From positions 1-25,280 of the forward strand of contig JAZDLW010000031.1 in the NCBI GenBank assembly GCA_043801595.1: DNA of 25,280 nt, written 5' to 3'. Origin of the DNA: Candidatus Aenigmatarchaeota archaeon (GTDB lineage: Archaea; Aenigmatarchaeota; Aenigmatarchaeia; JACPZZ01). The notes under the pieces are model-generated. The model was given only the letters and a program-made list of their open reading frames with translations. It did not search any database and was not told the DNA's origin. Position 1 is the stretch's first letter, and every line of letters begins with the position of its first letter. The translations under genes were made by a program, and so were the position numbers. This document shows positions 2,167-24,382 of the stretch, one piece after another.

Positions 2167-5100
2167 TTGAATACTGGCACTTTAAGGGGCAAAATTGCGG
2201 TTTTCGGCGCGTTTCTGTTAGTCCTATCCTTCGTTTCGGTCGGAGCTGGCGCATTTACGGTTGATTTCACTTCAAACATTTCCGTGCAGTTCAATTACAA
2301 CATGACAATCTCCGGAAATATCTATAACAACACCGGAGAAAACGTAAACGGTTCGAATTGGTTTGTCAATGCTTCGCTAACGAACGGAAACTTTGTACGC
2401 GCAATGCCTTACATACTTTCCTCAGCGCCGACAAACTCAAGCTTCAATGTCAGCATTAACACGACAGGCATATCAGGCCCGTCGTCCGTTTTCCTACAGA
2501 TTTCAAACGGGACAATGACTGTGGGTAGAACTCTCAAATTCATGGTAACAAACATATCGAGTGCTACAATATCGTTTGTCGGCAAATCGCCGCCATTTTC
2601 GCCCGGTGACTTCATAACAGCGAAAATTGTTGCGAAAAACTGGTCTGGTGTGACTGTTGTCGACCAGACAACAATCAACGGAACTATATACGCTGCCGAT
2701 GGCCCGAAAACGACATGGGGATCTAACTCGTCAAAAACAAACGCGAACGGCGAAACGCTGCTAAACTTCTCAATACCAACGAACGCCGAAGCGGGCAATT
2801 ATATATTGTCAATTGAGGGCAGGGCAGGTTCGATATTCTTCGGAATCGAAAAATATTCGCTGACTGTTATGGCAAAAGACAGTTTTGGCAATATCAAAAA
2901 CGCGTTCGCGCCCGGAAGCGCAGCCACAATCGAATCGAGATTGACTTACACAAACGACACGTCCATTTCAGGCGCTGCAACAACAATCGAAATAATAGAC
3001 CCGACCGGATTGTTGACAAGTTCTTCCGGTTCGTCGTATACTGATGGCCGATTCCAGTACAACTACACAGCAACCGCAACAGGAACTTACAAAGTGCGCG
3101 TACAATCAGGCGGGCAGGGAGCTGCAGGCTCGTTCGCAACGCGCACGATGTCTGCGACAATAGTGCCGAGAGAGGCTGCATCGTTCTTCAGGGAATTCGC
3201 TGGCAAAAAATTGTTCCCGCCAGGACAGAATGTCTCGTTAACGATATTGCCGACAAACGTAAGCAGCGGAGAGATACTGCCGTTAGGATCGACGTCGTAT
3301 GACTGCTCGCAAAACAATTTTACAATACTCGATACGTATTTCGCAAACAACCAGACATCGCTAAACAGCACTATCGGTAAGTGGCTTTCATTTGTGCCGA
3401 CAACGCACACGGGCGTTGCGGTGTGCGGAATAGAATTCAATCTTACATCGAACTATGTCGGGCTGTTCGGAATAAAAATTAATGTCACCACAGCGGATAA
3501 TTCCAATTCTATAGCACAGGGATACTTCTCAATACAAAGATATGGTTTATCGGTTGAACCGTCTTCCGACTATGGTGATAACGAATTCATGTCCATGTTG
3601 TTGCCCGGCGCGAATGCGACGTTCAAGCTCACTGCATTTGACATATCCAGCGGCGAAAATCTTAACGGCTTTAATATAACGAATGCCACTGTGCAGAAAA
3701 TAACACTGTTATCAACATCCGGTCTGGGGGCAACGGAAATAACGGACGTAACAAACAGCTTCTCGTTCGTCGATGCCGCTACTGCTGATGGCAACGAACC
3801 GTACCTTGTCGGAGGACCTATACCGTCGATTGCGGGTCCGCAGATAATCACAATAATGGCGTCTGTGAACGGAACGAATAACATAACCGCCGATGCTTTA
3901 TATCTCGGCAAATACCTGATGGGCTACGGAACGCCTTCCGGAAACAGATACGGCGGGGAGAGCGGCGGTGGAGGAGGCAAGCAGGAAGGCGGAATGGGAG
4001 AAGGTATGTCGATAGACTGCTCTGGAACAACAGAATTCAATGTAATGGTTTTCGATGCAAAGACGTTCATGCCCGCGAGCTCGGTGTCATTTTTATCCAT
4101 TTTATCTGCGAGAGACGAGTTGACGGGAAGCGATATAAGTTCGTGTTTGGCAGTAACAAAAGGCCTGACCAGTTCGTCGGGTCAGGCAAAGATAAACGTA
4201 ACTTTCTCGAGCGCATGCACATACGCCGGGTTCAATTTCGTGCAGTTCAACGTGTCGTTCCAGGATAAAACAGACCAAATACCCGCAGGTTTCAGCTGTG
4301 TATCAATGTCGATGACGCCGAACACCTACAACAACTTGGGCCAGCAGAGATTTTCATTTTCGCCGACCGCGAACATAACAATGCTCGTGCAGAATGTTTC
4401 ATACACCGCGAACTCGTCGCGCATTGTGGTCGGCGGAAACGCCAGCGTTGTAACCCTGATAAACATGAATCCGTCAACAGGCGCAACTGTGCTAACGCCG
4501 ATTAGCCTGATCAATGTTTCTTTGGTATTGCACAACGGAAACTACGAGGGCAACATCACGATAAACCCGATGCAGTTCATGTCTGCAGGAAAACCGCTAA
4601 CAAAATGGCCCACAGGCTTCTTTGAGCTGCGAGTAAAAGTGTGCGACAACGCATCGACAGCGACAAAAGGCTATTCGGGCGCTTGCGGAACGTCATCAAA
4701 CTCGGGATTCAAGATCGCGCCGTTTGATATGTGGACAGACTGGTGGATGAGCGCGAATGCACAGGCCACGTTCCAGCCTGGACAAGCTGTTGTAAATATC
4801 AGTTTATTTGCGGACCTATGGCCGTGGAATGTCGCGAATGTGTCAAGAATCGTTGTCGAACTTATGAACTTTGAGACTGGCAAGAAAACAAATACGACAT
4901 CCGTAATGTGGCTGAACGGAACGCCGGCATTTGATCCTTATTACGCGGGGTTCGGAATTCCCGAACCGTCCAGCACAATTGAAAATATAACATTCAACTT
5001 CACAATACCCGTTACAATTAAATCAGGAAATTACGGTGGAATAATAACAGCTACGAACGGCGGCAGTGGTGAAACAACCGACGAGATGGTACAGGTCACG

Positions 5101-6972
5101 ATCAAAGGGCTGACTATCGGAGTTCCGCTAAAGGAAAACTGGAACGCGCCGAACGGGCATTGCTGGCCTACAAGCTATTACATCCAATTTTGGAATTTCA
5201 CAGCACCGAACGGCATGCCGCTTGGCAACATGCACGTACAACAAGGCACAACAGACGGGTGGACATACCAAAACTGGACTCACATAAACAACACATATCT
5301 TGGAATGAATGCGGCTGTAGCGGATAATTCTATGATCTGCACAGGACTCACAGTAGCAACGCTTAGCGACATCGACAATTCGGCGTCAACAAACTACACA
5401 GGCATAAACATAATGGCTGTGTCGAATGAAACGAACATCTTTGTTTTCATCGGCAACAGATCAAGTGTTCCAGCAAACGGTTTGATAACCGCGGAAAATT
5501 GGAACATAACAGGAATAACACGGCTGAATAACACAAACACTATACCGTTGACCGGTTATGAAAAGACCTATCTTTGGACAGCAGACGGCGCATCGTTCAT
5601 AAGGTTCGTCAATGTGACAACGCTCACGCCGTGCAATGAAGGGTCTGGACAGGGTTGCACAGTAATAACTAACTTTGCGTTTGCAGGTGGCGCCAAGATC
5701 AGGGAACTTATTCGAATGCCGTTTGTCGCATTCAGGGGAAGCGGAACAGCCGGTGCTGCTAATGGCGCCACGCCGCTTGCGAAGTACTGGTTCAATATCA
5801 CAGATGTTGCTGAGATGAACACGGAAGGGTTCGGAATAAAGTCGACTCTGCCTGCTAACTCTACGGACTTTGTTGTGAATTTCACTGGTTGGACAGATTT
5901 CACAGGAAACCTGACAGATGCTAATGGGTTGGCGTTCGTTCCGCTAAACGTAACGAAGAGCGGAAGGTTCATGGCGTTCTGGAAAGTCAATTCCACGCCA
6001 GTTGAAAAATCTTCGTTCAAAAACTCAGTGAACTTCAATGTGCGCTCATTTAATTCGTATGGCAATTATGTGCAATTATTGCCGGCAACAACGCACAGAA
6101 TAACATTGTACGCGAACCCGACGACGTTCATGACAGCTGTTGGAAATAATGCCGGTTCGGGTTTCAGTGAAGCTGTGGCGCCTACAATTTTCTATTCTGG
6201 AAACTTCACCGAAACCGCCGGAAACGAACTTGTTAGGGACGGTGTGATTGAGACGTTCTATTTTGTGATATCCAACTCAACGCCGATGAACGGCGCTGCG
6301 TATTACCGAGGAAACCTGACAAGGATGTACATTGACGATGATTCTAACATGACTGATAACTCGCAATGCTCTGCCTCGGAAAACGCAAACAACCAGAACC
6401 AGAATGAAACATCAAACCCGAACTGCCTGGGTTCTTCGGGCAAGGTTTTCAATTATCCGACAAAGATGATCGAATCAACGAGCAGCAACAAACAATTCTC
6501 ATTCGGAGAAAACCTACGACTCGGGATGACTGACTGGTGGTTCAACTCCACACACGCAATACTGAACTTTTACGAGGCGAACCCGTCAATAGACTGGGCA
6601 ACCGTAAACTCGATAACGCAGCGCTTCGGATTGCGCGTTTGCGCGTCGACATTCGCGAACAGTGCGATGAACGCTACGTTCATACTGAAGTATAACAACT
6701 GGATGAACGGCGAGGTTTCCGCGAACGTAACCGCATACAACATAACGCACAACATCGCGGTTAACGCGCCCAGCAACATGTCCGGATCGATATACGATGG
6801 TTGCCTGTTAACAGAAGTGTTGCCGCAGAAAGGAACATGGACGCTGGGAAGGAACGAAATATCAGGAACAACCTACGAGATCGATAACAACGGCGTTGCA
6901 ACAGGAACCCAGGAAGATTTGTTCGCCGGACCGATCGAATATCTTAGCGGTGGAAGCAAGAACTTTGGATGA
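2167..6972 (+). CDS. Very large secreted surface glycoprotein (Ig/MG2-like beta domains; S-layer or adhesin-like)
   Basis: 1601 aa; N-terminal signal peptide; very many N-x-S/T sequons; rich in Asn/Thr/Ser/Gly; MG2-like segments (FSPGD...NFSIPTNAEAGNYILSI); no C-terminal TM. TTG start uncertain. Confidence 0.75.
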   Translation: MNTGTLRGKIAVFGAFLLVLSFVSVGAGAFTVDFTSNISVQFNYNMTISGNIYNNTGENVNGSNWFVNASLTNGNFVRAMPYILSSAPTNSSFNVSINTTGISGPSSVFLQISNGTMTVGRTLKFMVTNISSATISFVGKSPPFSPGDFITAKIVAKNWSGVTVVDQTTINGTIYAADGPKTTWGSNSSKTNANGETLLNFSIPTNAEAGNYILSIEGRAGSIFFGIEKYSLTVMAKDSFGNIKNAFAPGSAATIESRLTYTNDTSISGAATTIEIIDPTGLLTSSSGSSYTDGRFQYNYTATATGTYKVRVQSGGQGAAGSFATRTMSATIVPREAASFFREFAGKKLFPPGQNVSLTILPTNVSSGEILPLGSTSYDCSQNNFTILDTYFANNQTSLNSTIGKWLSFVPTTHTGVAVCGIEFNLTSNYVGLFGIKINVTTADNSNSIAQGYFSIQRYGLSVEPSSDYGDNEFMSMLLPGANATFKLTAFDISSGENLNGFNITNATVQKITLLSTSGLGATEITDVTNSFSFVDAATADGNEPYLVGGPIPSIAGPQIITIMASVNGTNNITADALYLGKYLMGYGTPSGNRYGGESGGGGGKQEGGMGEGMSIDCSGTTEFNVMVFDAKTFMPASSVSFLSILSARDELTGSDISSCLAVTKGLTSSSGQAKINVTFSSACTYAGFNFVQFNVSFQDKTDQIPAGFSCVSMSMTPNTYNNLGQQRFSFSPTANITMLVQNVSYTANSSRIVVGGNASVVTLINMNPSTGATVLTPISLINVSLVLHNGNYEGNITINPMQFMSAGKPLTKWPTGFFELRVKVCDNASTATKGYSGACGTSSNSGFKIAPFDMWTDWWMSANAQATFQPGQAVVNISLFADLWPWNVANVSRIVVELMNFETGKKTNTTSVMWLNGTPAFDPYYAGFGIPEPSSTIENITFNFTIPVTIKSGNYGGIITATNGGSGETTDEMVQVTIKGLTIGVPLKENWNAPNGHCWPTSYYIQFWNFTAPNGMPLGNMHVQQGTTDGWTYQNWTHINNTYLGMNAAVADNSMICTGLTVATLSDIDNSASTNYTGINIMAVSNETNIFVFIGNRSSVPANGLITAENWNITGITRLNNTNTIPLTGYEKTYLWTADGASFIRFVNVTTLTPCNEGSGQGCTVITNFAFAGGAKIRELIRMPFVAFRGSGTAGAANGATPLAKYWFNITDVAEMNTEGFGIKSTLPANSTDFVVNFTGWTDFTGNLTDANGLAFVPLNVTKSGRFMAFWKVNSTPVEKSSFKNSVNFNVRSFNSYGNYVQLLPATTHRITLYANPTTFMTAVGNNAGSGFSEAVAPTIFYSGNFTETAGNELVRDGVIETFYFVISNSTPMNGAAYYRGNLTRMYIDDDSNMTDNSQCSASENANNQNQNETSNPNCLGSSGKVFNYPTKMIESTSSNKQFSFGENLRLGMTDWWFNSTHAILNFYEANPSIDWATVNSITQRFGLRVCASTFANSAMNATFILKYNNWMNGEVSANVTAYNITHNIAVNAPSNMSGSIYDGCLLTEVLPQKGTWTLGRNEISGTTYEIDNNGVATGTQEDLFAGPIEYLSGGSKNFG

Positions 6973-6980
6973 ATGATTGA

Positions 6981-8477
6981 ATGAGAAAAATAGTATTATC
7001 ATTGATTATCGGCATGTTGATGCTGACGTCCGGCGCTTTAGCGGCGACGGTTACAGTAAACGACCCGTCTTTCGATTCGACGACAGCGGATGCCGGAACA
7101 ACGAGAACAATAAGCGTTACGATGTCGACTGATACCGGAACTGCGACAATAAACTCGTTTTCGGTAAGTTCGTCGCCTTCGGGGTTAACAATAGGCTCTG
7201 TTAGTACGCCTTTCACTGTCGGAACATCTGGAGCGACGAAAACCTTCACAATAAGCTCGTCAACTGCGAATACATATTCTTTCACTGTTACGTTGTTAGA
7301 TTCGGGCGGTTCGAGTTACAGCAGCAGCGCCTCGACAATCGAATACGTCAACCCGTCGAGCCTGACGCTCACTGTTGTTGAAGAGTCTTTGTCAACGGTT
7401 TACGATGGCAACAACACCGGAATAGCGATAAATGTTGAGAATGCGCTCGCGACTTCGCAGACTAGGAATCTCACGCTCTATCAGAACAAATCAAACACTT
7501 TCGTTGTTAACACTTCGCTGGGAAGCGATCCTGCTGCGCAAACATTGTCGCTGGCGGCGGGGCAAACGAAATCCGTTGTTTGGAACATAACGATCGGTTC
7601 GTTCGACGGCACAGGCCACGCGATAATAAGGCTCGGCGACACGACATCGTCGAAAGTTTTCACGCTGACAAAGGGGACGACAACTACAACAGGGTCGTCC
7701 GCTACAACAACGACATCGAGCACAGGAAGCGGTTCTTCCGCAACGACAACGTCCACGACCACAACAACCGTAAATACGGGACACGAAATACAAAAAATCG
7801 TGCAGGATATCGTGCAGAGGAAAAACGATGAGATAAAGTCGCTTATAGACAGCAAAGAAGAATTGAAAACTGGTCTCAGACTCGCGCTCGGAAAGAACAT
7901 TTCAGAGGAGGTAAAAGCAATTGTTGCTGCGGCAACGGAAAAAATACAGAAACAGATAAGCGTAAACAGGACCATAGATGTTGACACGATAAACTTGCGG
8001 TCTTCGGTCATTTTAAAAATAAAATTCAACGGGACTGAACAGGTCAACAATTTCATTGTTAAGGACATTGTTCCAAAATCGTTCGCTGCCAGAGCTTCGA
8101 ATATAACGCTGTCGGCTCCGAACGCAATTGTGAACGTAACAAACCCTGATCCGGAATTTTTGTTCACCTATGCGAGCATGCTGCCTGGCGCTGAAAACAC
8201 GATAACGTACAGCGTAAATGAACGCGTATTTACGATACTGGGTGAATACTCTGCGCCGATAATACTCGCTGGTTCGACACAAACTGCGCCGTCGAACACA
8301 ACGCTCACGAACACGTCCTCGACTACTACAACGACCGTGCCTGCTGGCGGAGGCGCGAATAACTCGCTTGTTTTCATTATTGCCATTGTACTGGTACTTG
8401 GCGGCGCGTTCTGGTTCTACATGCAGAACTACGCCAAAAAGAAGCCATGGCAATCTATGGCAAAACAGTCGCGATAA
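6981..8477 (+). CDS. Membrane-anchored surface glycoprotein with Thr/Ser-rich linkers and C-terminal TM
   Basis: Signal peptide, beta-rich domains, poly-Thr linkers, a helical segment, then TM LVFIIAIVLVLGGAFWFY and a basic tail. Starts 8 bp after the previous gene. Confidence 0.8.
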   Translation: MRKIVLSLIIGMLMLTSGALAATVTVNDPSFDSTTADAGTTRTISVTMSTDTGTATINSFSVSSSPSGLTIGSVSTPFTVGTSGATKTFTISSSTANTYSFTVTLLDSGGSSYSSSASTIEYVNPSSLTLTVVEESLSTVYDGNNTGIAINVENALATSQTRNLTLYQNKSNTFVVNTSLGSDPAAQTLSLAAGQTKSVVWNITIGSFDGTGHAIIRLGDTTSSKVFTLTKGTTTTTGSSATTTTSSTGSGSSATTTSTTTTTVNTGHEIQKIVQDIVQRKNDEIKSLIDSKEELKTGLRLALGKNISEEVKAIVAAATEKIQKQISVNRTIDVDTINLRSSVILKIKFNGTEQVNNFIVKDIVPKSFAARASNITLSAPNAIVNVTNPDPEFLFTYASMLPGAENTITYSVNERVFTILGEYSAPIILAGSTQTAPSNTTLTNTSSTTTTTVPAGGGANNSLVFIIAIVLVLGGAFWFYMQNYAKKKPWQSMAKQSR

Positions 8478-13196: not shown

Positions 13197-13315
13197 TTGT
13201 CGACAAGGCTAACAAATCATCAAAAAGATCGTTTTGCCAACGGGTTTTCTGTCGGTTTGTTCCGACAAGTGGCGACAATTGGTCGTGTTTATCGAAGTGT
13301 CGGGTGATGTGTCGG
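13197..13315. repeat. TGTCG(G/A) motif cluster A
   Basis: TTGTCGACAA (13197-13206), TGTCGG-N6-CCGACA (13250-13267), GCGACA, and GTGTCGG at 13297 and 13309. Confidence 0.6.
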
Positions 13316-15257: not shown

Positions 15258-15677
15258 TTAAACGAACTGCACCTCCTTGTCAAGCTGTTCTGCGCGATTC
15301 TGGAGTTTCTCTAAAACTTTATCAGCGTCCTTGCGAATATTTAGTATAATACGAGCGATTTCTCCCTCTGCTAAGCAATATTCGTTCGGAGCCAGCTTGT
15401 TTAACAAACCAGCGTCAATCAGGCGACCGACGTATTTGTAGCAAGTTGAGCGCGGAAGGCCTATGTGTTGCTGTATCTCCTCGATTTTAGCGCTGTTTTT
15501 GGCTTCTTTTTCTATTTTAGACTGGTTGCGGCCAGCTAAAAACATGAATATGTCGGTTATTTTATCGCCTTGCTCGTCCCTGTTGATAAGACCCAATGAA
15601 TTGAGAAGCCAGTTAGCGATCAATCTCGCGTCCTTTGTTTTCGGGACCGGAAGATCGGAAATGGTGATTTTCCGCAT
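15258..15677 (-). CDS. Winged helix-turn-helix transcriptional regulator
   Basis: IEEIQQHIGLPRSTCYKYVGRLIDAGLL HTH; N-terminal WL..SLGL..RD; C-terminal coiled helix. Likely start is the ATG at 15677. Confidence 0.8.
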   Translation of the reverse strand: MRKITISDLPVPKTKDARLIANWLLNSLGLINRDEQGDKITDIFMFLAGRNQSKIEKEAKNSAKIEEIQQHIGLPRSTCYKYVGRLIDAGLLNKLAPNEYCLAEGEIARIILNIRKDADKVLEKLQNRAEQLDKEVQFV

Positions 15678-15860
15678 AATACTCGCAATGTAGATTTGTC
15701 TCGGATGGCTTATATAGGTTAGCAGACGATGAACAACGAAAACGGCGATTTCTGATGCTATTGCGAAAATCGAAGAAAAGTCTCGGAACATATATAAACA
15801 TGGGAAAACTAGCCTTCGCAGCACCAAGCTTCCTGGGTAATTGATACGAAAGAAGCTATG

Positions 15861-16187
15861 TCACAGATTTTGTGGACTTTCCGATCTTTTGGTCCTGTTT
15901 TTCTCAAAATTTGTCATCTTTGTGACCAAGCCTTCAAGGTAGTTTGCGATCTCACGACCATCGTCTGTGAGCTCAATCATCTTAATCCTGCCTGTTTTCT
16001 TGAAATCAACAAGGCCCATTCTCTTGAACTTGTCAAGAAGCTTCACAGTGTGCGAATAAGTACAGTCAACCTCTTTTGCCAATTGCGTGGCATATTTGGG
16101 CGATTTTGCACAAATAAGGAGCCTTGCGGGCTTTTCGTGTAAAAACAAGGTTTCTAAAATGTTGTTTTCCTCGATTTCCTGCTCCAA
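15861..16187 (-). CDS. MarR-like winged-helix DNA-binding protein
   Basis: YATQLAKEVDCTYSHTVKLL..F...GLV.F.K.GR.K.IELT..G; SD-like GGGGGCGTGA before a TTG start. Confidence 0.85.
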   Translation of the reverse strand: MEQEIEENNILETLFLHEKPARLLICAKSPKYATQLAKEVDCTYSHTVKLLDKFKRMGLVDFKKTGRIKMIELTDDGREIANYLEGLVTKMTNFEKNRTKRSESPQNL

Positions 16188-17536: not shown

Positions 17537-17755
17537 ATGAGTGTTATGACCGAATTACCTTATGCCGCGTGCGAAAGAATTCTAAGAAAGGCAGGCGGCG
17601 GACGGGTTGGAAAGGATGCTGTCGACGAGTTTGCAAAAGTCCTTGAAGGCGTTGCTGTTGAACTGTCTGCAGAGGCTGCGACAATGGCACGGCATGCAGG
17701 CCGAAAAACGATTATTGACGCAGACGTGAGGCTTGCGAGAAAAAAGCTGATATAG
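17537..17755 (+). CDS. Archaeal histone (HMf family)
   Basis: ELP.A...RI...AG..RV..DA...A..ARHAGRKTI...DV.LA. Start may be 17546. Confidence 0.95.
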   Translation: MSVMTELPYAACERILRKAGGGRVGKDAVDEFAKVLEGVAVELSAEAATMARHAGRKTIIDADVRLARKKLI

Positions 17756-17815: not shown

Positions 17816-18814
17816 ATGCTTACGCTAGACGAGATAACGAACAAGATATCCGAGCAAACCGGCCTTGATAATACGCTGATACAAGGCAAGATAGAGGATA
17901 AAAAAGTGGAATTATCCGGGCTAATATCGTCGGAAGGCGCTGCGCACCTTGTCGCACGCGATCTTGGTGTTGACCTGCTAAAACGCATTAACATACGATT
18001 AGAGGTAAAAAACATTGTTCCTGGAATGCGGAGCGTTGAGATAACCGCGCGCGTTGCGAAGATTTATCCTACGCGAGAGTTTGAACGCAATGGTAACAAA
18101 GGCAGGGTTGCGAATATTGTTTTGTGGGATCCTACCGGAACCGTGCGCATGTCGCTGTGGAATGACGAAATAAAAATCATAGAAACGCTGAAAGAGGGCG
18201 ATGTTGTAAAAGTCTACGGCTACAGCAAAGAGGACAACAGGGGCAGTGCGGAATTGCGCCTGGGAAACCGCGGAAAGATCGAAAAAACCGATGTTGATTT
18301 TCCTGCAATCGAAGAAATCCATGTGCAGGAAAAACGGTCAAACATATCGGAATTAAGGGAAGGCTCGATAACAAAGATCCGCGGCGCGATTATGCAAATT
18401 TTTGAATCAGACCCGTTCTATGAAATCTGTCCGAAATGCGGGATACGCGTACGATCAAACGAAAATAAATTCTTCTGCGACGAACACCAGTATGTGACTC
18501 CGGATTATTCGATGGTGATATCCGGTGTTATTGACGACGGTTCGATGAGCATGCGGGTCGTATTTTTCCGCGAAACGGCTGAAAAACTTCTCGGCGTGAC
18601 AGTAAAAGATGCGCTTGCTCTTGCAAAAGACAAGATGAACCGCACTGCCGCCATTACCGAAAACGCAGGGAAACTGCTGGGAAAGGAATTTATATTTTCA
18701 GGAAGAGTAAAGAAAAATGCGATGTTTGACAGGATTGAGATGATAGTTTCCGACATCGAAACTGTCAATGCCGCAGAAGAGGCGAATAAAATTTTAGTTG
18801 CGATGGCTGGTTGA
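17816..18814 (+). CDS. Replication protein A-like subunit (N-terminal helical domain, two OB folds, Zn ribbon)
   Basis: GLIS.EGAA.LVA..LGV; OB motif [16 protein letters not shown]...CDEH zinc ligands; IDDGS..MRVVFF. Confidence 0.88.
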
Positions 18815-18815
18815 T

Positions 18816-19754
18816 ATGAAGAAGCTTGAACTTGAGGATTTACCGGGTGTCGGCCCGAAAGTCGCGGAAAAATTAAGAGAAGTCGGTTTTACCGATTTAA
18901 TGTCTGTTGCCGCTTCGTCATCGGGCGAACTTGCAAATGTCGCCGATGTCGGAGAAATAACAGCTTCGAAAATAATCGAAGCCGCGAGAAACGCGCTTGA
19001 CATGGGTTTCGACACTGCTGAAAAGCTAAAAGAAAAAAGAAAGACCGTCGGTTTTATCACAACAGGTTCCAAAGCGTTAGACGCTCTTCTTGGAGGCGGC
19101 ATTGAAACACAAGCGCTGTCCGAAGCGTACGGCGCTTTCGGAAGCGGAAAAAGTCAGCTGGGTTTTCAGTTACTCGTAAATGTGCAACTGCCAATCGAAA
19201 AAGGCGGCCTGAACGGGAAAGGAATGATGATTGATTGTGAAAACACATTCCGTCCCTCGCGCGTTGAACAGCTTGCCAAGGGGCTAGGCCTGGATCCGCT
19301 GAAAACGCTGAAAAATATTCTCGTGGCTAGGGCGTTCAATTCGGATCATCAGATGTTATTGGCCGAAAAGGCCGCTGACCTGATAGAAAAAAATGATATC
19401 AAGCTGGTTGTTGTTGATGGTTTGATGTCGAATTTTCGCGTAGACTACACAGGACGAGGGACGTTATCGGAGCGGCAGCAGAAATTAAACCGACACCTTC
19501 ATCACCTGCTGAAGATGGCCGACACCCATAACGTAGCAGTTTATGTCACAAACCAGGTCATGGCACGTCCGGATATGCTTTTCGGAGACCCGACAGCGCC
19601 CATCGGAGGGCATATATTGGGGCATGCGTCAACAGTCAGATTCTACCTTAGAAAAAGCAAAGAGGACAAACGAATCGCGCGATTAATAGACTCACCGCAC
19701 TTGCCTGAGGGCGAGGCTGTGTTTCGCGTAACGCCGGAAGGCGTAAAGGATTAA
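18816..19754 (+). CDS. radA: DNA repair and recombination protein RadA
   Basis: N-terminal Hh[10 protein letters not shown]; Walker [53 protein letters not shown] at 18816. Confidence 0.98.
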
Positions 19755-19788: not shown

Positions 19789-19829
19789 TGTCGGATACCG
19801 ACACTTCGACTTGTCGATGTGGACCGACA
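19789..19829. repeat. TGTCG(G/A) motif cluster B at the promoter of the wHTH coiled-coil gene
   Basis: TGTCGG-ATA-CCGACA (19789-19803), TCGACTTGTCGA (19806-19817), CCGACA (19824-19829). Confidence 0.65.
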
Positions 19830-19842
19830 GTTGGCAGTCAAG

Positions 19843-20475
19843 ATGGGCGTAATAGGATATATCAAATCCTTGTTTTACGGCAAAAAACTTACGCCTGCAG
19901 CCGCACAAACACAGCTTGCTCAGCCTGTTGAACCGATTGAACAGAACGTAAAAATGACTCCTTCCGAATTTGAAGAGTTTCTTCGTCAGGGGGGCAACAT
20001 GGACTATGCTATAAACAAGGTCGAGAGTATGGAAGAGCGGATAAAGGCGATTTCCGAACACCCGATCCAGAAAAAGGTCATCGAACACGAACTATTGTCA
20101 GGCATGCTCGAAACCATGAAGGACATGAACACAAAGCTGTCCTATTTACCCGAGATAAACGAGCGCGTTAATTCATTACCAACTCTTGCGGAAACATACT
20201 CGCTGCTCCAAAAAATGACGCCTGGGGCGCCTACTAATGTCCAGAAAGAGCTTGAACAAATGGTCGGAAAGGTCGAATCGCAGCTCGATGAAGCGTATTT
20301 GCTGTTATTAAAGGGAAAGGGAGAGATGACAGCGGAACAGGTCTCGCAGGAGTTTAAAATATCGCGCAACACCGCTTCGGAACGATTAAATAAGTTGTGC
20401 GATCTGGGAAAAACAAAAAAAACCAGGAAAAACAGAAAGGTTTTCTTTACCCTCACTTCCGAAGGCGTGGTTTAA
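19843..20475 (+). CDS. Uncharacterised protein: N-terminal amphipathic helix, coiled-coil, C-terminal winged HTH
   Basis: MGVIGYIKSLF N-terminus; helical heptad-like middle; MTAEQVSQEFKISRNTASERLNKLCDLGK.KK.RK.RKVFF HTH plus wing. ATG at 19843 preferred over GTG at 19819. Confidence 0.8.
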   Translation: MGVIGYIKSLFYGKKLTPAAAQTQLAQPVEPIEQNVKMTPSEFEEFLRQGGNMDYAINKVESMEERIKAISEHPIQKKVIEHELLSGMLETMKDMNTKLSYLPEINERVNSLPTLAETYSLLQKMTPGAPTNVQKELEQMVGKVESQLDEAYLLLLKGKGEMTAEQVSQEFKISRNTASERLNKLCDLGKTKKTRKNRKVFFTLTSEGVV

Positions 20476-20521
20476 AACTTAGAAAAAATTCTAATCAAAA
20501 AAACTTCTTCCTAAGAAGTTT

Positions 20522-20788
20522 TTAGGCAACTTCTTCTTCGCTGATTATAACGAAGTCGCCGACCGACTTGACCGAAGAGAACGGTATTAAACGTCGCCCC
20601 TTCTTGTCTTCCTGCAGGTTCAACCCATCTGCGTGTTTAGTCGGGTCGACCATTATCAGGTTCATCAGTTCGCCGGATTCGGTTATGAAGCTGACATCGC
20701 CGACTGTTCCGAATTTTCTTCCGGTTTCCTCGGAAACAACGACTTTACCTACAAGGTTTCTTGCACGTATTCTCTCTTCGCTTGCCAT
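20522..20788 (-). CDS. cdpB: PRC-barrel protein, CdpB-like cell division protein
   Basis: A..L.GK.VV....G...G.V.D......SG.L..L...IPFSSVKSVGDFVII stand-alone PRC barrel; SD GGAGGT. Assignment to CdpB is by family resemblance. Confidence 0.75.
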   Translation of the reverse strand: MASEERIRARNLVGKVVVSEETGRKFGTVGDVSFITESGELMNLIMVDPTKHADGLNLQEDKKGRRLIPFSSVKSVGDFVIISEEEVA

Positions 20789-20850
20789 TTTTTTAACCTC
20801 CGATAATCAAAACTAAAATAATAATAGGCTCCGATACTTTAAATACTTCC

Positions 20851-21924
20851 CTAGGTTATTGCTGTTATTGTCCTCACTTTCGGAGAAATTTTGTAAACGA
20901 ATCCTTTGCCGCGTTTTTCCCTTAGTATGCAATCCGTGTCCATCAAGCGCCGCAGGATGTTGTTCACAGACCTCGATGCATGGTCTTCGGACTTGTAGTC
21001 TTCCACGCCGATTTTTGCCGCTATTTCCGACGGGTTCAACAAACCCTGCCCGGATAAAAGTTTCAGTATCTCTTTTTGTTTTTCCGGCAGCGACTCTATG
21101 AAATTCACGCTTGGCGCGCTTATTTCGGGCGGCCTTACGGCATCGGCGGCGCCGGCATCGATGATCTGAATTTTCTTTTCAGCGGCCTCGCGCGTCAGGT
21201 CGTCGCACATTTTCAAGACGTTGCGCGGAAAGCCGCCGGTTTTCTGGTAGATAATGTCGAGCGCTTCTTTTGAAAACGGACCCGTGCCTGTTCCGCCAGC
21301 AAACTCTATCCGCTTCTTTACAAGCGCTTCAACTTCTTCACGTGACAGTGACGTTAACTCGACGCGACTTGTGACCCTGTTCAACAATGTTTCAAGTTTT
21401 TCTTCCAGGACTGTTTCAAGAACCGACAATCCGGCGATCACAACGGAAATATTGTTGACCTGATCGGCAATCGTTCGCAACCACTCCAAGACAGGCAGCG
21501 AAGCCTCGTGACATTCGTCGACCAGAAGAACCATCTTCCTGTTCCTGAGTTTTTTGTTAACGTAGACCGGAAGTTCATACAACGTAACGCGGTCACGTGA
21601 AAGCAATCTGTCGAAAAATGAAGGTCGCAGAACGGATTTGAATATGTGAACGAAATCTTCCGGGTTCTGCGGCGGCTTTGTAATGTACAACACCAGATAA
21701 TCATCTTTAACAGTCTCGATCATCTTTTTCAGGAGCGTTGTTTTGCCTGACCCTGTCGGACCTATCAACAGTGTGACTTTTTCGTTGTTCTGGGCGTTCC
21801 GAACCAATGTTGCCAGCTCCGATGAATAACCTACAAAGAGCTCTGGCATGATCTTCAATGAGAACGGGTTTTCCTTCCAGGATTGGGGCTGGTTAGCGTT
21901 TGCGGTCGTATCAACGATGTTCAC
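20851..21924 (-). CDS. AAA+ ATPase (ExeA/AAA_22-like) with C-terminal winged HTH
   Basis: NPF motif, Walker A GPTGSGKT, Walker B LLVDE, arginine finger LLNRV, sensor GGFPRNV; C-terminal wHTH (LPEKQKEIL..L...NPSEIA...SVNNILRRL...REKRGKGFVY). Confidence 0.88.
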   Translation of the reverse strand: MNIVDTTANANQPQSWKENPFSLKIMPELFVGYSSELATLVRNAQNNEKVTLLIGPTGSGKTTLLKKMIETVKDDYLVLYITKPPQNPEDFVHIFKSVLRPSFFDRLLSRDRVTLYELPVYVNKKLRNRKMVLLVDECHEASLPVLEWLRTIADQVNNISVVIAGLSVLETVLEEKLETLLNRVTSRVELTSLSREEVEALVKKRIEFAGGTGTGPFSKEALDIIYQKTGGFPRNVLKMCDDLTREAAEKKIQIIDAGAADAVRPPEISAPSVNFIESLPEKQKEILKLLSGQGLLNPSEIAAKIGVEDYKSEDHASRSVNNILRRLMDTDCILREKRGKGFVYKISPKVRTITAIT

Positions 21925-22170
21925 GTTACTTCACTTAAGTAATATCACATTCACGTGAATATAAATTCATCGACGTGAAGACACGTGAAGATACGTTACC
22001 TTTAAATATCGGTAACGTGAAGTAACGTAAGGTAACGTGAAGTTAAACACGAGAATTGGGCGGTAAAAGTGGAAACTAGATACTTTCTGGCAATCGAGGT
22101 GGATGATCACGTGAAGGTTCACGTGAAGGAGCTGCAAGATCGCGTGAAGGACTGTGAAGCAGACGTGAAG
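21920..22170. repeat. Iteron-like ACGTGAAG repeat array with roughly 10-bp phasing
   Basis: Exact ACGTGAAG at 21973, 21983, 22015, 22035, 22109, 22121, 22163; variants near 22025, 22142, 22152; inverted copies at 21920-21934 and 21993-22000; palindrome ATTCACGTGAAT at 21949-21960. Confidence 0.92.
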
Positions 22171-22641
22171 CTTGTAGAGCCGGAAAACCTCCATTTTACG
22201 GTCAAATTCCTTGGTAACCTGGATCAAACAACGATAAGACGGGTTATTGACGTATTAACACCCCCTCTGGAGTGTGAATTCACTTCTAAAGTGAGCGTTC
22301 AGGGTATCGGTTCCTTCGGGCCTTCTTCGTCTCCTAGGATAATATGGGCGGGTGTTAGCACCGGAAAACCATACCTTGCCGGGCTTTTTGGGGTAATTTC
22401 CGAGAAAATCAACGATTTAGGCCTAAAAACCGATGAAAAAGAGCAAATTCCCCACATTACCATAGGCCGCGTGAGGTCGGATAAGAATATAAGCAAGCTG
22501 AAAGAAATTATATCAAAGGAAAGTGAGACTTTCTTCGGAGAAACCGAGATAACCGCGATAAAGTTAAAGACAAGCCGCCTTACTCCAAGCGGGCCGGAGT
22601 ACTCTGATGTTCACGTGTTTTTGTTGAAACGAAGACCGTGA
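22069..22641 (+). CDS. thpR: RNA 2',3'-cyclic phosphodiesterase (2H family, LigT/ThpR)
   Basis: R.FLAI, NLHFTVKFLG, PRIIWAGV, PHITIGRV and S.LTPSGP.Y motifs. Confidence 0.94.
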   Translation: METRYFLAIEVDDHVKVHVKELQDRVKDCEADVKLVEPENLHFTVKFLGNLDQTTIRRVIDVLTPPLECEFTSKVSVQGIGSFGPSSSPRIIWAGVSTGKPYLAGLFGVISEKINDLGLKTDEKEQIPHITIGRVRSDKNISKLKEIISKESETFFGETEITAIKLKTSRLTPSGPEYSDVHVFLLKRRP

Positions 22642-22669
22642 AGCAAATTTTTGGTTGTTTTCTAGGAAG

Positions 22670-22750
22670 TGTCGATCTGTCGGCTAGTGTCGGATATATC
22701 GATGACAATTCAAAGTTGGGTGAGACACCTATATTGACTGGAAACCGACA
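22670..22750. repeat. TGTCG(G/A) motif cluster C between convergent thpR and dnaG
   Basis: TGTCGA 22670, TGTCGG 22678, TGTCGG 22688, TATCGA 22697, CCGACA 22745. Confidence 0.6.
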
Positions 22751-22853: not shown

Positions 22854-24176
22854 TTATTCCGCTTTTTTACCCAACAGCGCGGCTTTGGTTATCACGATAA
22901 CGCTGGTCCTTGGCAAACGATCGCGTTCCATGCCTACGAGAAACTTCACACTGTTAGCTTCGGCTATTTCCGTTAATTCCTTCGTAACCATACCGTCAAG
23001 GACTATGGCGTGGGCGCGAATGCCTGACAACGATCCTGCAATGTCTTTAGCAGGAACACGACCAAGTAGGTTCAGGCTGTCATCGTAGATGCATGCCGCT
23101 CTTGTGCCGACAAGCTCCTCCAAAGACTCCTTGAATATGTCAGCGTACTTCTTTGGTATCTTGATTGTCCGCTTCGCATCGTCGCGGTCATGCCTCTCTG
23201 TCATAGGTTCGTGGAAAGGTTTCGCCTCAACAGGCTCTGTTGGTTCCGAAGATTCGGTCGGCTGGTATTCTGTTCTTGGTATCATTGGTTCGGGCCGCGG
23301 CCTAAATTCGGTTCTTCTTTCCTGGTAGTCCGACTTTTGGCCAAAGGACTCCTTTCTCTCAAGCCTCAACTGCTCCATTGAAATCTTTTCACGAAGCGCT
23401 TTGTACACTTCTTTTTTTGTCAACTCTTCGACTTCTTTGCCTTGCGGCGCAAAAGCCACATAGTCGATGTCGGTAAGCTGAAGCAGTTCTTTCAAAATCA
23501 GCTCTCCGCCACGGTCGCCATCGAGGAACACTGTAACTTCCTTTTCCTTTACAATGTCGCGAATTTCGGGCGGTATTGATGTTCCGCCAACAGCGACTGC
23601 GTTTTTGATACCATTCTTCAACAGATTCAAAACATCGGCGCGACCTTCGACAAGCGTTATCGCGTCCGACTTCGCTACGTCCGGACCTGCGGGCAAACCC
23701 TTGAATACTGTTATCTCGCCTGTCCTGACTTCCTGTTTAATTTGTTCTGTTAGAACGTCTGATTCTGGCAGCGAATTGTATACCAGATCTTTCAATATCC
23801 GCTTTGCTGTCTCGACAATGTATTTTCTCTTGGAAATACGCACGTCTTCGACTTTTGTGATTTTGATCGTGGCTGCGCAAGGCCCGACACGCTCTATTGT
23901 TTCAATAGCAGCGGCGATTAACGCAGTTTCGGAAGCGTCCATAGACGACGGTATGATTATTCTTCCGTATGATTTTGCGTTTGATGAATTGATGAAAACC
24001 TCGATGCGTCCTATGCGGCCGGTTCGCTGCAATTCCCGCAATTCCAGCTCTGTTCCCAGCAGACCTTCCGTTTGCCCGAATATTGCGCCGATAATATCGG
24101 GCTTTTCTACAACCCCTTCAGCGTCTATCTGCGCTTCTATCGTATATTTTGTTGTTGACTGCGGCAATTTTGCCAT
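22854..24176 (-). CDS. dnaG: Archaeal DnaG-like protein (TOPRIM; exosome-associated in characterised archaea)
   Basis: GVVEKPDIIGAIFGQTEGLLG, LQRTGRIGRI, ETIERVGPC, VEGRADV.NL, FLDGDRGG, EVEEL motifs. ATG at 24176 preferred (24185 possible). Confidence 0.97.
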   Translation of the reverse strand: MAKLPQSTTKYTIEAQIDAEGVVEKPDIIGAIFGQTEGLLGTELELRELQRTGRIGRIEVFINSSNAKSYGRIIIPSSMDASETALIAAAIETIERVGPCAATIKITKVEDVRISKRKYIVETAKRILKDLVYNSLPESDVLTEQIKQEVRTGEITVFKGLPAGPDVAKSDAITLVEGRADVLNLLKNGIKNAVAVGGTSIPPEIRDIVKEKEVTVFLDGDRGGELILKELLQLTDIDYVAFAPQGKEVEELTKKEVYKALREKISMEQLRLERKESFGQKSDYQERRTEFRPRPEPMIPRTEYQPTESSEPTEPVEAKPFHEPMTERHDRDDAKRTIKIPKKYADIFKESLEELVGTRAACIYDDSLNLLGRVPAKDIAGSLSGIRAHAIVLDGMVTKELTEIAEANSVKFLVGMERDRLPRTSVIVITKAALLGKKAE

Positions 24177-24382
24177 TTGAATCATTCCTCCATGATTATT
24201 CGGATAGCTTGCTATCCGATCGATTAACCAGAAAAAACCTTACAAACCCAAAATCGGCCTGCCACAAACCTTCAACCGCACTGTGCAATGTTTTGCGCGG
24301 TTGTTTAATGAGTATGAACGTTGTTTCCGGTGTAAATCTAAGATCTTATGATATCGCGGGTTTATAAGGATTGCGGTAGCCG

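Follow-up and report, generated by a model that had tools for sequence, protein, structure and literature searches.

Introduction

The partition systems SegAB/segS, HpaAB and ParABS pair a ParA-type ATPase with a separate centromere-binding protein (accessible parts of PMC12139799 and PMC13722703). A second point of reference is the initiator Orc1/Cdc6 with its origin recognition boxes (ORBs), and a third is provided by the MuB and TnsC ATPases, which form ATP-dependent filaments on DNA according to the titles of their structure entries. Here, we describe a locus of a Candidatus Aenigmatarchaeota archaeon (contig JAZDLW010000031.1 of assembly GCA_043801595.1, 25,280 nucleotides; below, “the window” means this whole stretch of DNA), in which a gene for an AAA+ ATPase with a C-terminal winged helix-turn-helix (wHTH) domain carries an array of YGTGAA boxes at its 5′ end. 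The window is one contig of an 814-kb assembly that is 86% complete, and its close relatives carry the label Aenigmatarchaeota. These are tiny symbiotic archaea of the DPANN group; to our knowledge, essentially nothing is known about the way DPANN archaea handle their chromosomes.

A preliminary description of the window had joined the ATPase gene, a PRC-barrel gene and a gene for a second wHTH protein into one replication/segregation module, possibly an origin or centromere coupled to the divisome. The three open reading frames (ORFs), both repeat clusters and the place of the block between the histone, RPA and radA genes and dnaG were confirmed in the window. The locus nevertheless consists of two separable units rather than one module: the ATPase with its array, which is phylum-wide, and the second wHTH protein with its TGTCGR clusters, which is family-specific. 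For the first unit we infer, with a probability of roughly 0.45, that the ATPase would bind the array and form an origin-proximal, self-regulating, centromere-like nucleoprotein complex with a possible membrane tether.

The YGTGAA Array Belongs to the ATPase Gene

The ATPase gene occupies positions 20851..21924 on the minus strand and encodes 357 amino acids; its start codon is uncertain. The array at its 5′ end (21920..22169) contains 13 boxes. Seven of them cover the ATPase start and the intergenic region shared with the divergent thpR gene (22069..22641, plus strand; RNA 2′,3′-cyclic phosphodiesterase, TIGR02258 138 bits against a cut-off of 65.7), and six lie within the 5′ codons of thpR, a gene that the preliminary description had left unmentioned. 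The hexamer ACGTGAAG is present in eight copies in the window (seven clustered) against 0.85 expected, a number reached by 0 of 100 shuffles, and no other 6-mer in the 814-kb assembly is clustered as strongly (log10 P −20.5 in 300-bp windows, the next being −9.3). The true motif is YGTGAA, in both orientations; an unbiased 6-mer ranking of ATPase upstream regions yielded the same motif.

Counts in relatives come from the best 80 of 213 ATPase loci, which include some near-duplicates and of which 75 had enough flanking sequence for array counts, and from a phylum set of 201 genomes, in which presence of the ATPase was called at E ≤ 1e-60. Families, genomes and loci are named f2 to f19, G0xx to G2xx and Lxxx; G210 and G211 repeat G005 and G017 and were not recounted. 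The ATPase gene was found in 36 of 40 relatives and, as a single copy, in 140 of the 201 phylum genomes; at the same threshold, it was not found in families f18 (0/42) and f19 (0/9). The region from −300 to +30 of the ATPase gene contained a median of 9 boxes over 75 loci, compared with a shuffle mean of 0.32, and 59 of these loci had at least 4 boxes before the gene. Such density was nearly absent from control upstream regions (at least 4 boxes in PRC 0/69, radA 0/52, dnaG 0/20, histone 0/13 and RPA 1/34). Within 1.5 kb, up to 40 boxes were counted (median 18 in 73 loci, background included).

Spacings between same-strand boxes peaked at 11, 21–22, 30–33, 41–43 and 51–54 bp, corresponding to one helical turn of ~10.6 bp. 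The first 150 nt of thpR contained 2.35 boxes when thpR was the adjacent divergent gene and 0.26 otherwise (26 and 39 loci, respectively), and a strict phased triple of boxes was present in 80 of 140 ATPase-positive vs. 3 of 61 ATPase-negative genomes. In all five f18/f19 loci examined, thpR abuts the PRC gene, and both the ATPase gene and the array are gone. The YGTGAA array is therefore a property of the ATPase gene and is lost with it. A mobile repeat of the repetitive extragenic palindrome type was also considered and rejected, since each genome has essentially a single such locus rather than a regulon, and the array is tied to one gene.

Two kinds of additional genes were observed near such arrays. 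In family f9 (L025:2862-3530 and L026), the coding sequence of a wHTH gene is made up of TCAACA-containing tandem repeats, which encode STVVN/NQQL peptides, and a secondary GTGAA cluster lies in front of the gene. Genes for HTH proteins of ~100 amino acids, in at least three subgroups, lie within 2.5 kb of the ATPase gene in many families at variable positions (the L009:1165-1467 region, L012, L016, L018, L022, L030 and others, and beside the ATPase–cdc6 pair in f7) and may represent a further component.

The ATPase Is ExeA-like by Sequence and Cdc6/MuB/TnsC-like by Fold

In an alignment of 27 sequences, Walker A (residues 55–62), Walker B (D136/E137), R183 and R234 are invariant, as are Y310, R318, N321, N322, R335 and Y344 of the wHTH domain. 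R183 and R234 are probably the arginine finger and sensor II, respectively. Walker A is the classical GPTGxGKT of AAA+ proteins; the deviant Walker A of ParA-type ATPases was not found, and the fold search agrees with this.

The predicted ATPase model has a mean predicted local distance difference test score (pLDDT) of 86.5. A Foldseek search with the whole chain returned Cdc6/Orc1 (1fnn) as the top match (E 3.8e-14, template modeling score 0.54), so the resemblance to Orc1 expected in the preliminary description, an AAA+ core followed by a C-terminal wHTH, was found. Over the whole chain, Cdc6/Orc1 aligned with Z scores of 18–19 and a root-mean-square deviation (rmsd) of 9–14, while the core superposed on MuB with Z 18.2 (rmsd 3.6 Å, 224 aligned residues) and on TnsC with Z 17.6 (rmsd 3.8 Å, 237 aligned residues). 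A sequence search of solved structures produced P-loop-level matches only. The best named family is TIGR03015 (E 8e-22; 77.9 bits vs. a cut-off of 324.5), the ORC1-type profile NF001624 gave 19.5 bits vs. a cut-off of 354, and none of 19 Cdc6 proteins scored above 13 bits with the ATPase profile. A quick tree was made of 109 rows, picked by similarity to the query with 6 Cdc6 sequences added; in it, the ATPase family formed a clade (support 94) apart from bacterial ExeA (100) and from Cdc6 (100), and it grouped with ExeA-like proteins rather than with Cdc6. In sequence, the ATPase resembles ExeA and, in fold, Cdc6, MuB and TnsC; the profile scores and its place outside the Cdc6 clade bear out the earlier claim that the proteins of the locus are not canonical Cdc6, ParAB or SegAB.

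A short helix at residues 102–108 is hydrophobic at positions 103, 104, 107 and 108 (i, i+1, i+4, i+5) in 93–100% of the 27 sequences and presumably resembles MinD-type membrane-targeting helices.

Two further observations concern related proteins. One genome encodes a second, divergent ATPase paralogue (G017:C1:13446-14477, the same genome as G211), and related AAA clusters in Woesearchaeota, Micrarchaeota and Thermoplasmatota were noted as leads only.

The ATPase Gene and Its Array Stay Close to cdc6

A canonical cdc6 is encoded elsewhere in the genome to which the window belongs, close to the end of contig C11 and preceded by an ORB-like box, and a search of this genome with PF09079 (Cdc6_C) matched C11 only, not the ATPase. 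The ATPase gene and cdc6 are on one contig in 19 of the 36 genomes having both, and all 19 pairs are 1.5–33 kb apart. For the control pair rpS2–cdc6, a contig was shared in 4 of 35 genomes, with 2 within 35 kb; the corresponding numbers were 0 of 38 for sepF–cdc6 and 0 of 37 for ATPase–sepF. Eight further genomes were picked for long contigs: seven had the ATPase gene 5–29 kb from cdc6, and in one the pair was split. In family f7, the ATPase gene is away from the PRC and radA genes and lies directly upstream of ORB-cdc6 in G038 and G013 and one gene away in G020; in G038, 43 boxes extend over 850 bp before ORB-cdc6. The ATPase gene and its array stay near cdc6 and the ORBs even when the neighbors change.

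ORB-like boxes, defined by what we take to be the ORB pattern (TCCA...GAAA plus a G run), were found at cdc6 in 24 of 36 loci, and none was matched in the contig of the window. Four-fold-site GC skew, determined in sampled windows, changed from plus to minus at or near cdc6 in G207, G208 and G211. In these three genomes, the ATPase–cdc6 interval keeps the skew sign of the ATPase side, and the switch is therefore nearer to cdc6. Skew does not separate origin from terminus here, and it is the ORB-like boxes that argue for an origin. An origin-proximal position is thus suggested by cdc6 and the ORB-like boxes, and the skew agrees with it only in part. Of the proposal that the block is an origin, the proximity stands (cdc6 within 1.5–33 kb in 19 of 36 genomes), and the identity was rejected: cdc6 with its ORB-like boxes is separate from the array, and the skew, where a switch was seen, switches nearer to cdc6. 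For the same reasons, the ATPase is not likely to be the initiator.

Three other features of the cdc6 region were observed. The plus-to-minus polarity at cdc6/ORB in G207, G208 and G211 is opposite to that usual for bacterial origins. In several families (L152, L154, L157, L165 and others), a palindromic TATAACA-N-TGTTATA-like element lies between the ORB-like boxes that precede cdc6. In f18, a short divergent Cdc6-like protein of 349–361 amino acids with a weak Cdc6_C match is encoded (L254:5288-6370, L255:5518-6567 and L256:5351-6397), with no ORB-like box in 12 kb and no ATPase; replication initiation may differ in this family.

A Second wHTH Protein and Its TGTCGR Clusters Form a Separate Unit

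The second wHTH protein (19846..20475, plus strand; 209 amino acids) most likely starts at the ATG at 19846, which specifies a conserved methionine, and not at the GTG at 19819 chosen earlier. It is predicted to consist of an N-terminal amphipathic helix, a disordered linker, a helical/coiled-coil middle and a C-terminal winged helix. Its AlphaFold2 model is confident for the wHTH only (pLDDT >90, compared with ~50 for the N-terminal helix and a mean of 65.8). The amphipathic nature of the helix is read from the sequence pattern; the hydrophobic moment was 0.29–0.57 in 14 of 15 rows, the last row being mis-windowed. In the fold search, no structure matched at E ≤ 0.001, and the weaker matches were all to generic wHTH folds, among them AspA (7.7e-3); the domain folds like ArsR/TrmB regulators, and a look-up of the protein in Atlas returned no entry. 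RacA and Noc of Bacillus are, we assume, further likenesses.

Close homologues were found only in the family of the window, and the gene is in the locus in 5 of 80 loci. Since the gene is part of the locus in that family only, a single three-gene module is not supported; of the gene order expected to be conserved in relatives, the ATPase–PRC–radA part holds.

TGTCGR is common genome-wide (1.4 copies per kb, 66 copies in the window) and is weak evidence when taken alone; the clusters therefore needed a conservation test. Cluster 1 (19789..19829) immediately precedes the wHTH start; it is made up of two TGTCGR-N3..6-YCGACA palindromes and has 4–5 copies in 6/6 family relatives examined. Cluster 2 (22670..22750) lies between thpR and dnaG, whose 3′ ends converge, and has 3–5 copies in 7/7 family relatives examined. 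Cluster 3 (13250..13315), with one palindrome and two direct copies, lies 6.5 kb from the wHTH gene; it recurs in G005, at the same 6.5-kb offset and between convergent ORFs, and in G004, with the flanking genes changed. In some genomes, clusters 2 and 3 lie where the ends of two genes converge, which is not the place expected for an operator. With YGTGAA in 59 of 75 loci and TGTCGR in all family relatives examined, the prediction that each DNA-binding protein gene has a conserved repeat array of its own was borne out. TGTCGR as a phylum-wide feature of the ATPase locus was rejected, the palindrome-plus-site pattern being present in 8 of 201 genomes.

Among 22 weak homologues examined, four coiled-coil-wHTH genes of f18 have 6–9 TGTCGR copies and a recognition helix similar to that of the second wHTH protein (HHalign 86%), while the other 18 have 0–2 copies. 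In one f9 lineage, the slot convergent to the PRC gene is occupied by an amphipathic-helix/coiled-coil/wHTH analogue (HHalign 25% only) with TGTYGA 14–16 times within the gene. A second f9 lineage (L314:4727-5500, G094) has at the same place an analogue of this architecture with upstream TAAGTA/ACTTAA repeats and a different recognition helix. In other lineages, the slot holds comparable proteins, each with a motif of its own.

Two more co-directional wHTH genes, with function unassigned, are present at window positions 15258-16187 and are also conserved in G005, flanked by DUF373 on one side and TGTCGR cluster 3 on the other.

Proposed Mechanism

According to the model we favor, the invariant recognition helix of the ATPase would read YGTGAA, and boxes one turn apart would line the protomers up on one face of the DNA. 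ATP-dependent AAA+ contacts, by analogy with MuB/TnsC filaments, may build a cooperative oligomer, which may also repress its own promoter, as plasmid centromere/operator sites do. The short, putatively amphipathic helix 102–108 would bind membranes only when multimerized and would tether origin-proximal DNA to the membrane; tethering would hold new origins apart, and ATP hydrolysis would release the DNA. The second wHTH protein could add a further, RocS/RacA-like tether in this region, specific to the lineage and acting on its own TGTCGR sites, and the PRC-barrel gene would be a CdpB-like passenger of the conserved neighborhood. Four ParA/MinD-like ORFs were detected in the genome by a motif scan; their products could be partners of the ATPase or do the job instead.

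Several observations weigh against this model. Families f18 and f19 (51 genomes) live without the ATPase gene, and the strict phased triple is missing from 60 of the 140 ATPase-positive genomes, including all those of f2 and f16, where the arrays are more degenerate. The Nanopusillus orthologue has a changed recognition helix, and in the four of its 12 loci that were examined, neither an array nor a PRC neighbor was present; this would fit a coupling of helix and motif but also shows that not every orthologue has an array. Because the array overlaps both divergent promoters, part of it is accounted for by autoregulation alone. The position of helix 102–108 presumably corresponds to that of the initiator-specific motif, a DNA-contacting segment of Cdc6 and TnsC, and the helix may therefore not face the membrane. 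As for position, 17 of the 36 genomes are uninformative, with the ATPase gene and cdc6 on different contigs, and proximity to cdc6 is common to the whole dnaG-thpR-PRC-radA block in most families. G028 and G123 agree only weakly with a skew switch near cdc6 (the pattern of G123, with four segments, is ambiguous), G209 has weakly opposite polarity, and G005, from the genus of the window, shows no switch at the locus, with 15 of 16 windows positive. Finally, the compared genomes and loci are related by descent and are not independent.

A broader and more tentative version, which we hold to be possible but not probable, is that most Aenigmatarchaeota segregate or anchor the chromosome by a one-protein machine unlike ParABS, SegAB or SMC. 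In it, an ExeA-clade ATPase would polymerize via its own winged helix on a phased, origin-proximal array and tether this array to the membrane. Further tethers would be supplied by interchangeable amphipathic-helix/coiled-coil/wHTH proteins, each paired with its own motif, and bacterial ExeA would have descended from such archaeal DNA-binding ATPases.

With a named protein, a locus and a candidate binding motif that has a spacing rule, chromosome handling in DPANN archaea becomes directly testable. The YGTGAA array may also serve as a marker of the cdc6 region in Aenigmatarchaeota genomes. If the model is true, the locus would be a candidate for a new mode of chromosome anchoring or separation, working like segS/SegAB or parS.

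Alternative Explanations

The ATPase may instead assist Cdc6 at oriC or set its timing, as a second protein of the initiator kind, through remodeling, looping or handcuffing of the array to the ORBs, with no role in segregation; an origin-binding accessory protein provides a precedent (accessible part of PMC12141716). The Cdc6/Orc1 fold matches and the direct adjacency to ORB-cdc6 in f7 are in line with such a role, and secondary GTGAA clusters are found 0.6–4.4 kb from cdc6 in at least six genomes (G207, G211, G010, G034, G036 and G037). Lineages without the ATPase also have weak Cdc6_C matches only (5/5 tested). However, no secondary cluster accompanies cdc6 in the genome of the window, the main array usually lies 5–33 kb from cdc6, and the ATPase profile barely scores on Cdc6 proteins. 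GTGAA was weakly enriched beside ORBs (18 vs. 9.6 expected around 41 ORB-like sites, with at least two copies in 4 of 36 loci and some being degenerate ORBs), and the idea that GTGAA boxes generally flank ORBs found weak support on this count. We consider the co-factor role unlikely.

Low probability is also given to a plain ATP-sensing transcription factor, for which the non-initiator Orc1-2 is a precedent (accessible part of PMC9738581). Such a protein would repress its own promoter and the downstream PRC gene, and the second wHTH protein would likewise be an autorepressor, as its ArsR/TrmB-like fold might suggest. The array covers both divergent promoter regions, and the PRC gene is co-directional within 1.5 kb of the ATPase gene in 57 of 72 loci. 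Against this, there is no regulon, the radA, RPA, dnaG, PRC and histone upstream regions being without the motif; arrays reach the 43 boxes of G038 and enter coding sequence; sites are also located at convergent 3′ ends; and in f7 the ATPase gene follows cdc6 rather than PRC.

It is improbable that Cdc6 or the small HTH protein, rather than the ATPase, binds the boxes, which would then be mini-ORBs. CACGTGAAA occurs within some ORB-like sites, lineages that have lost the array also have an altered canonical Cdc6, and the ~100-aa HTH gene is nearby in many loci. However, boxes are most frequent in the 600 bp preceding the ATPase start, irrespective of how far away cdc6 is, the boxes (TTCAC/GTGAA) lack the G run of ORBs, and the orthologue with the changed recognition helix has no array. 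Small HTH genes had at least 4 boxes upstream in 0/13 and 1/20 cases, and none was found in the locus of the window.

The PRC-barrel protein (20522..20788, minus strand; PF05239) is the only strong PRC match in the genome and is 53–94% identical across the class. Coupling of the chromosome to the FtsZ/SepF divisome through one module of ATPase, wHTH protein and CdpB, as proposed in the preliminary description, is hardly to be expected, although the PRC gene is immediately adjacent to the ATPase gene in 23 of the 57 co-directional loci, amphipathic-helix/coiled-coil/wHTH genes recur convergent to PRC in three lineages, and sepF is present in 41/41 genomes. The coupling is unsupported because the two genes separate both ways, the PRC gene being kept without the ATPase in 5/5 f18/f19 loci examined and the ATPase away from PRC in 3/3 f7 genomes and 4 Nanopusillus loci, and because the ATPase gene and sepF never shared a contig (0/37). 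Unrelated genes are often inserted between the two. PRC genes are, moreover, commonly beside translation/RNA-processing genes with no functional link (accessible text of 10.1101/2023.03.28.534520); that text does not mention the thpR/ATPase/PRC neighborhood, which the supplementary neighborhood table of the survey may list. A complex prediction with ATPase residues 13–357 and the PRC barrel scored 0.00 in two runs and carries no weight either way.

In the f7 genome G020 (C2:4474-5837), the PRC gene is ~1.1 kb from sepF, which is consistent with CdpB identity.

A secretion- or pilus-associated ATPase of the ExeA (GspA/MshM) type is very improbable: TIGR03015 is the best named family, sources name the orthologues “general secretion pathway protein A”, and a probable type II/IV secretion ATPase (identified by eye) is encoded ~3.8 kb off, beyond radA–RPA, in 11 of 80 loci, but the score is far below the family cut-off, the clade is separate from bacterial ExeA, a wHTH replaces periplasmic/peptidoglycan domains, the flanking genes are thpR, PRC, radA, a kinase and dnaG with no adjoining secretion operon, and the array would be left unexplained. 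Thus, of the ExeA grouping in secretion loci that the preliminary description had envisaged as an opposing outcome, the ExeA-like sequence was found, with a conserved wHTH in place of the secretion operon. The result reassigns a protein labeled as a secretion component in databases and suggests a DNA-binding role within the ExeA clade.

Genes Surrounding the Locus

The gene order is histone, RPA, radA and 209-aa wHTH protein (all plus strand), PRC barrel and 357-aa ATPase (minus), thpR (plus) and dnaG (minus). The context genes are an archaeal histone (17537..17755, plus; PF00808), RPA (17816..18814, plus; PF01336 and PF08646), radA (18816..19754, plus; PF08423) and archaeal dnaG (22854..24185, minus; NF003108, 474.6 bits against a cut-off of 300). 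In relatives, radA is downstream of the ATPase gene in 55 of 65 loci. Elsewhere, at window positions 2167-8477, a 1601-aa protein with weak Ig/MG2-like matches is followed by a 498-aa orphan; both are probably surface proteins.

Comparison with Known Systems

No published description of the ATPase or the array was found in the literature searched, with most subscription papers outside reach; the accessible parts of PMC13228585 and 10.64898/2026.05.13.725050 contain nothing on the ATPase locus. The centromere-like complex we propose for the ATPase and its array would be new in composition, since the pair fails membership of every system tested; should the ATPase prove to be a plain autoregulator, it would merely add a member to a known kind.

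Orc1/Cdc6 shares with the ATPase the AAA+ core, the lid, the C-terminal wHTH and repeats beside the gene. It differs in sequence (≤18% identity), in belonging to a separate clade and in the Cdc6_C domain, not matched at the ATPase; the array boxes, unlike ORBs, are 6-mers in helical phase, and a canonical cdc6 with ORB-like boxes co-exists. The closest sequence family, the ExeA/GspA/MshM and XrtA/PEP-CTERM-associated ATPases of TIGR03015, has the N-terminal NPF motif, Walker B hhhhDE and GGxPR in common with the ATPase. Its members have envelope domains where the ATPase has the wHTH, and the ATPase scores far below their cut-off, lacks a secretion operon and has its own DNA array.

The AAA+ core superposes on MuB and TnsC, but the ATPase is single-copy and vertically kept and has its own wHTH of a sequence-specific type. 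Single copy and conserved synteny argue against mobility, and no transposase was recognized among the clustered ORFs of the 80 loci, where no search was aimed at transposase families.

The second wHTH protein would combine a DNA-binding domain with a predicted coiled coil and a predicted amphipathic helix, the elements of RocS of Streptococcus, and membrane binding of RocS needs oligomerization (accessible part of PMC11500499). The domain order is reversed, the likeness is one of architecture alone, and in our case clustered specific sites co-occur. The PRC protein resembles CdpB as a stand-alone, single-domain, highly conserved PRC barrel in an archaeon with FtsZ and SepF.

Finally, the ATPase locus resembles SegAB/segS, HpaAB and ParABS in having a repeat site beside its own genes, near the origin, as the accessible parts of PMC12139799 and PMC13722703 describe for those systems. 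Where they divide the work between two proteins, a single chain here combines the ATPase, the wHTH and a putative membrane helix.

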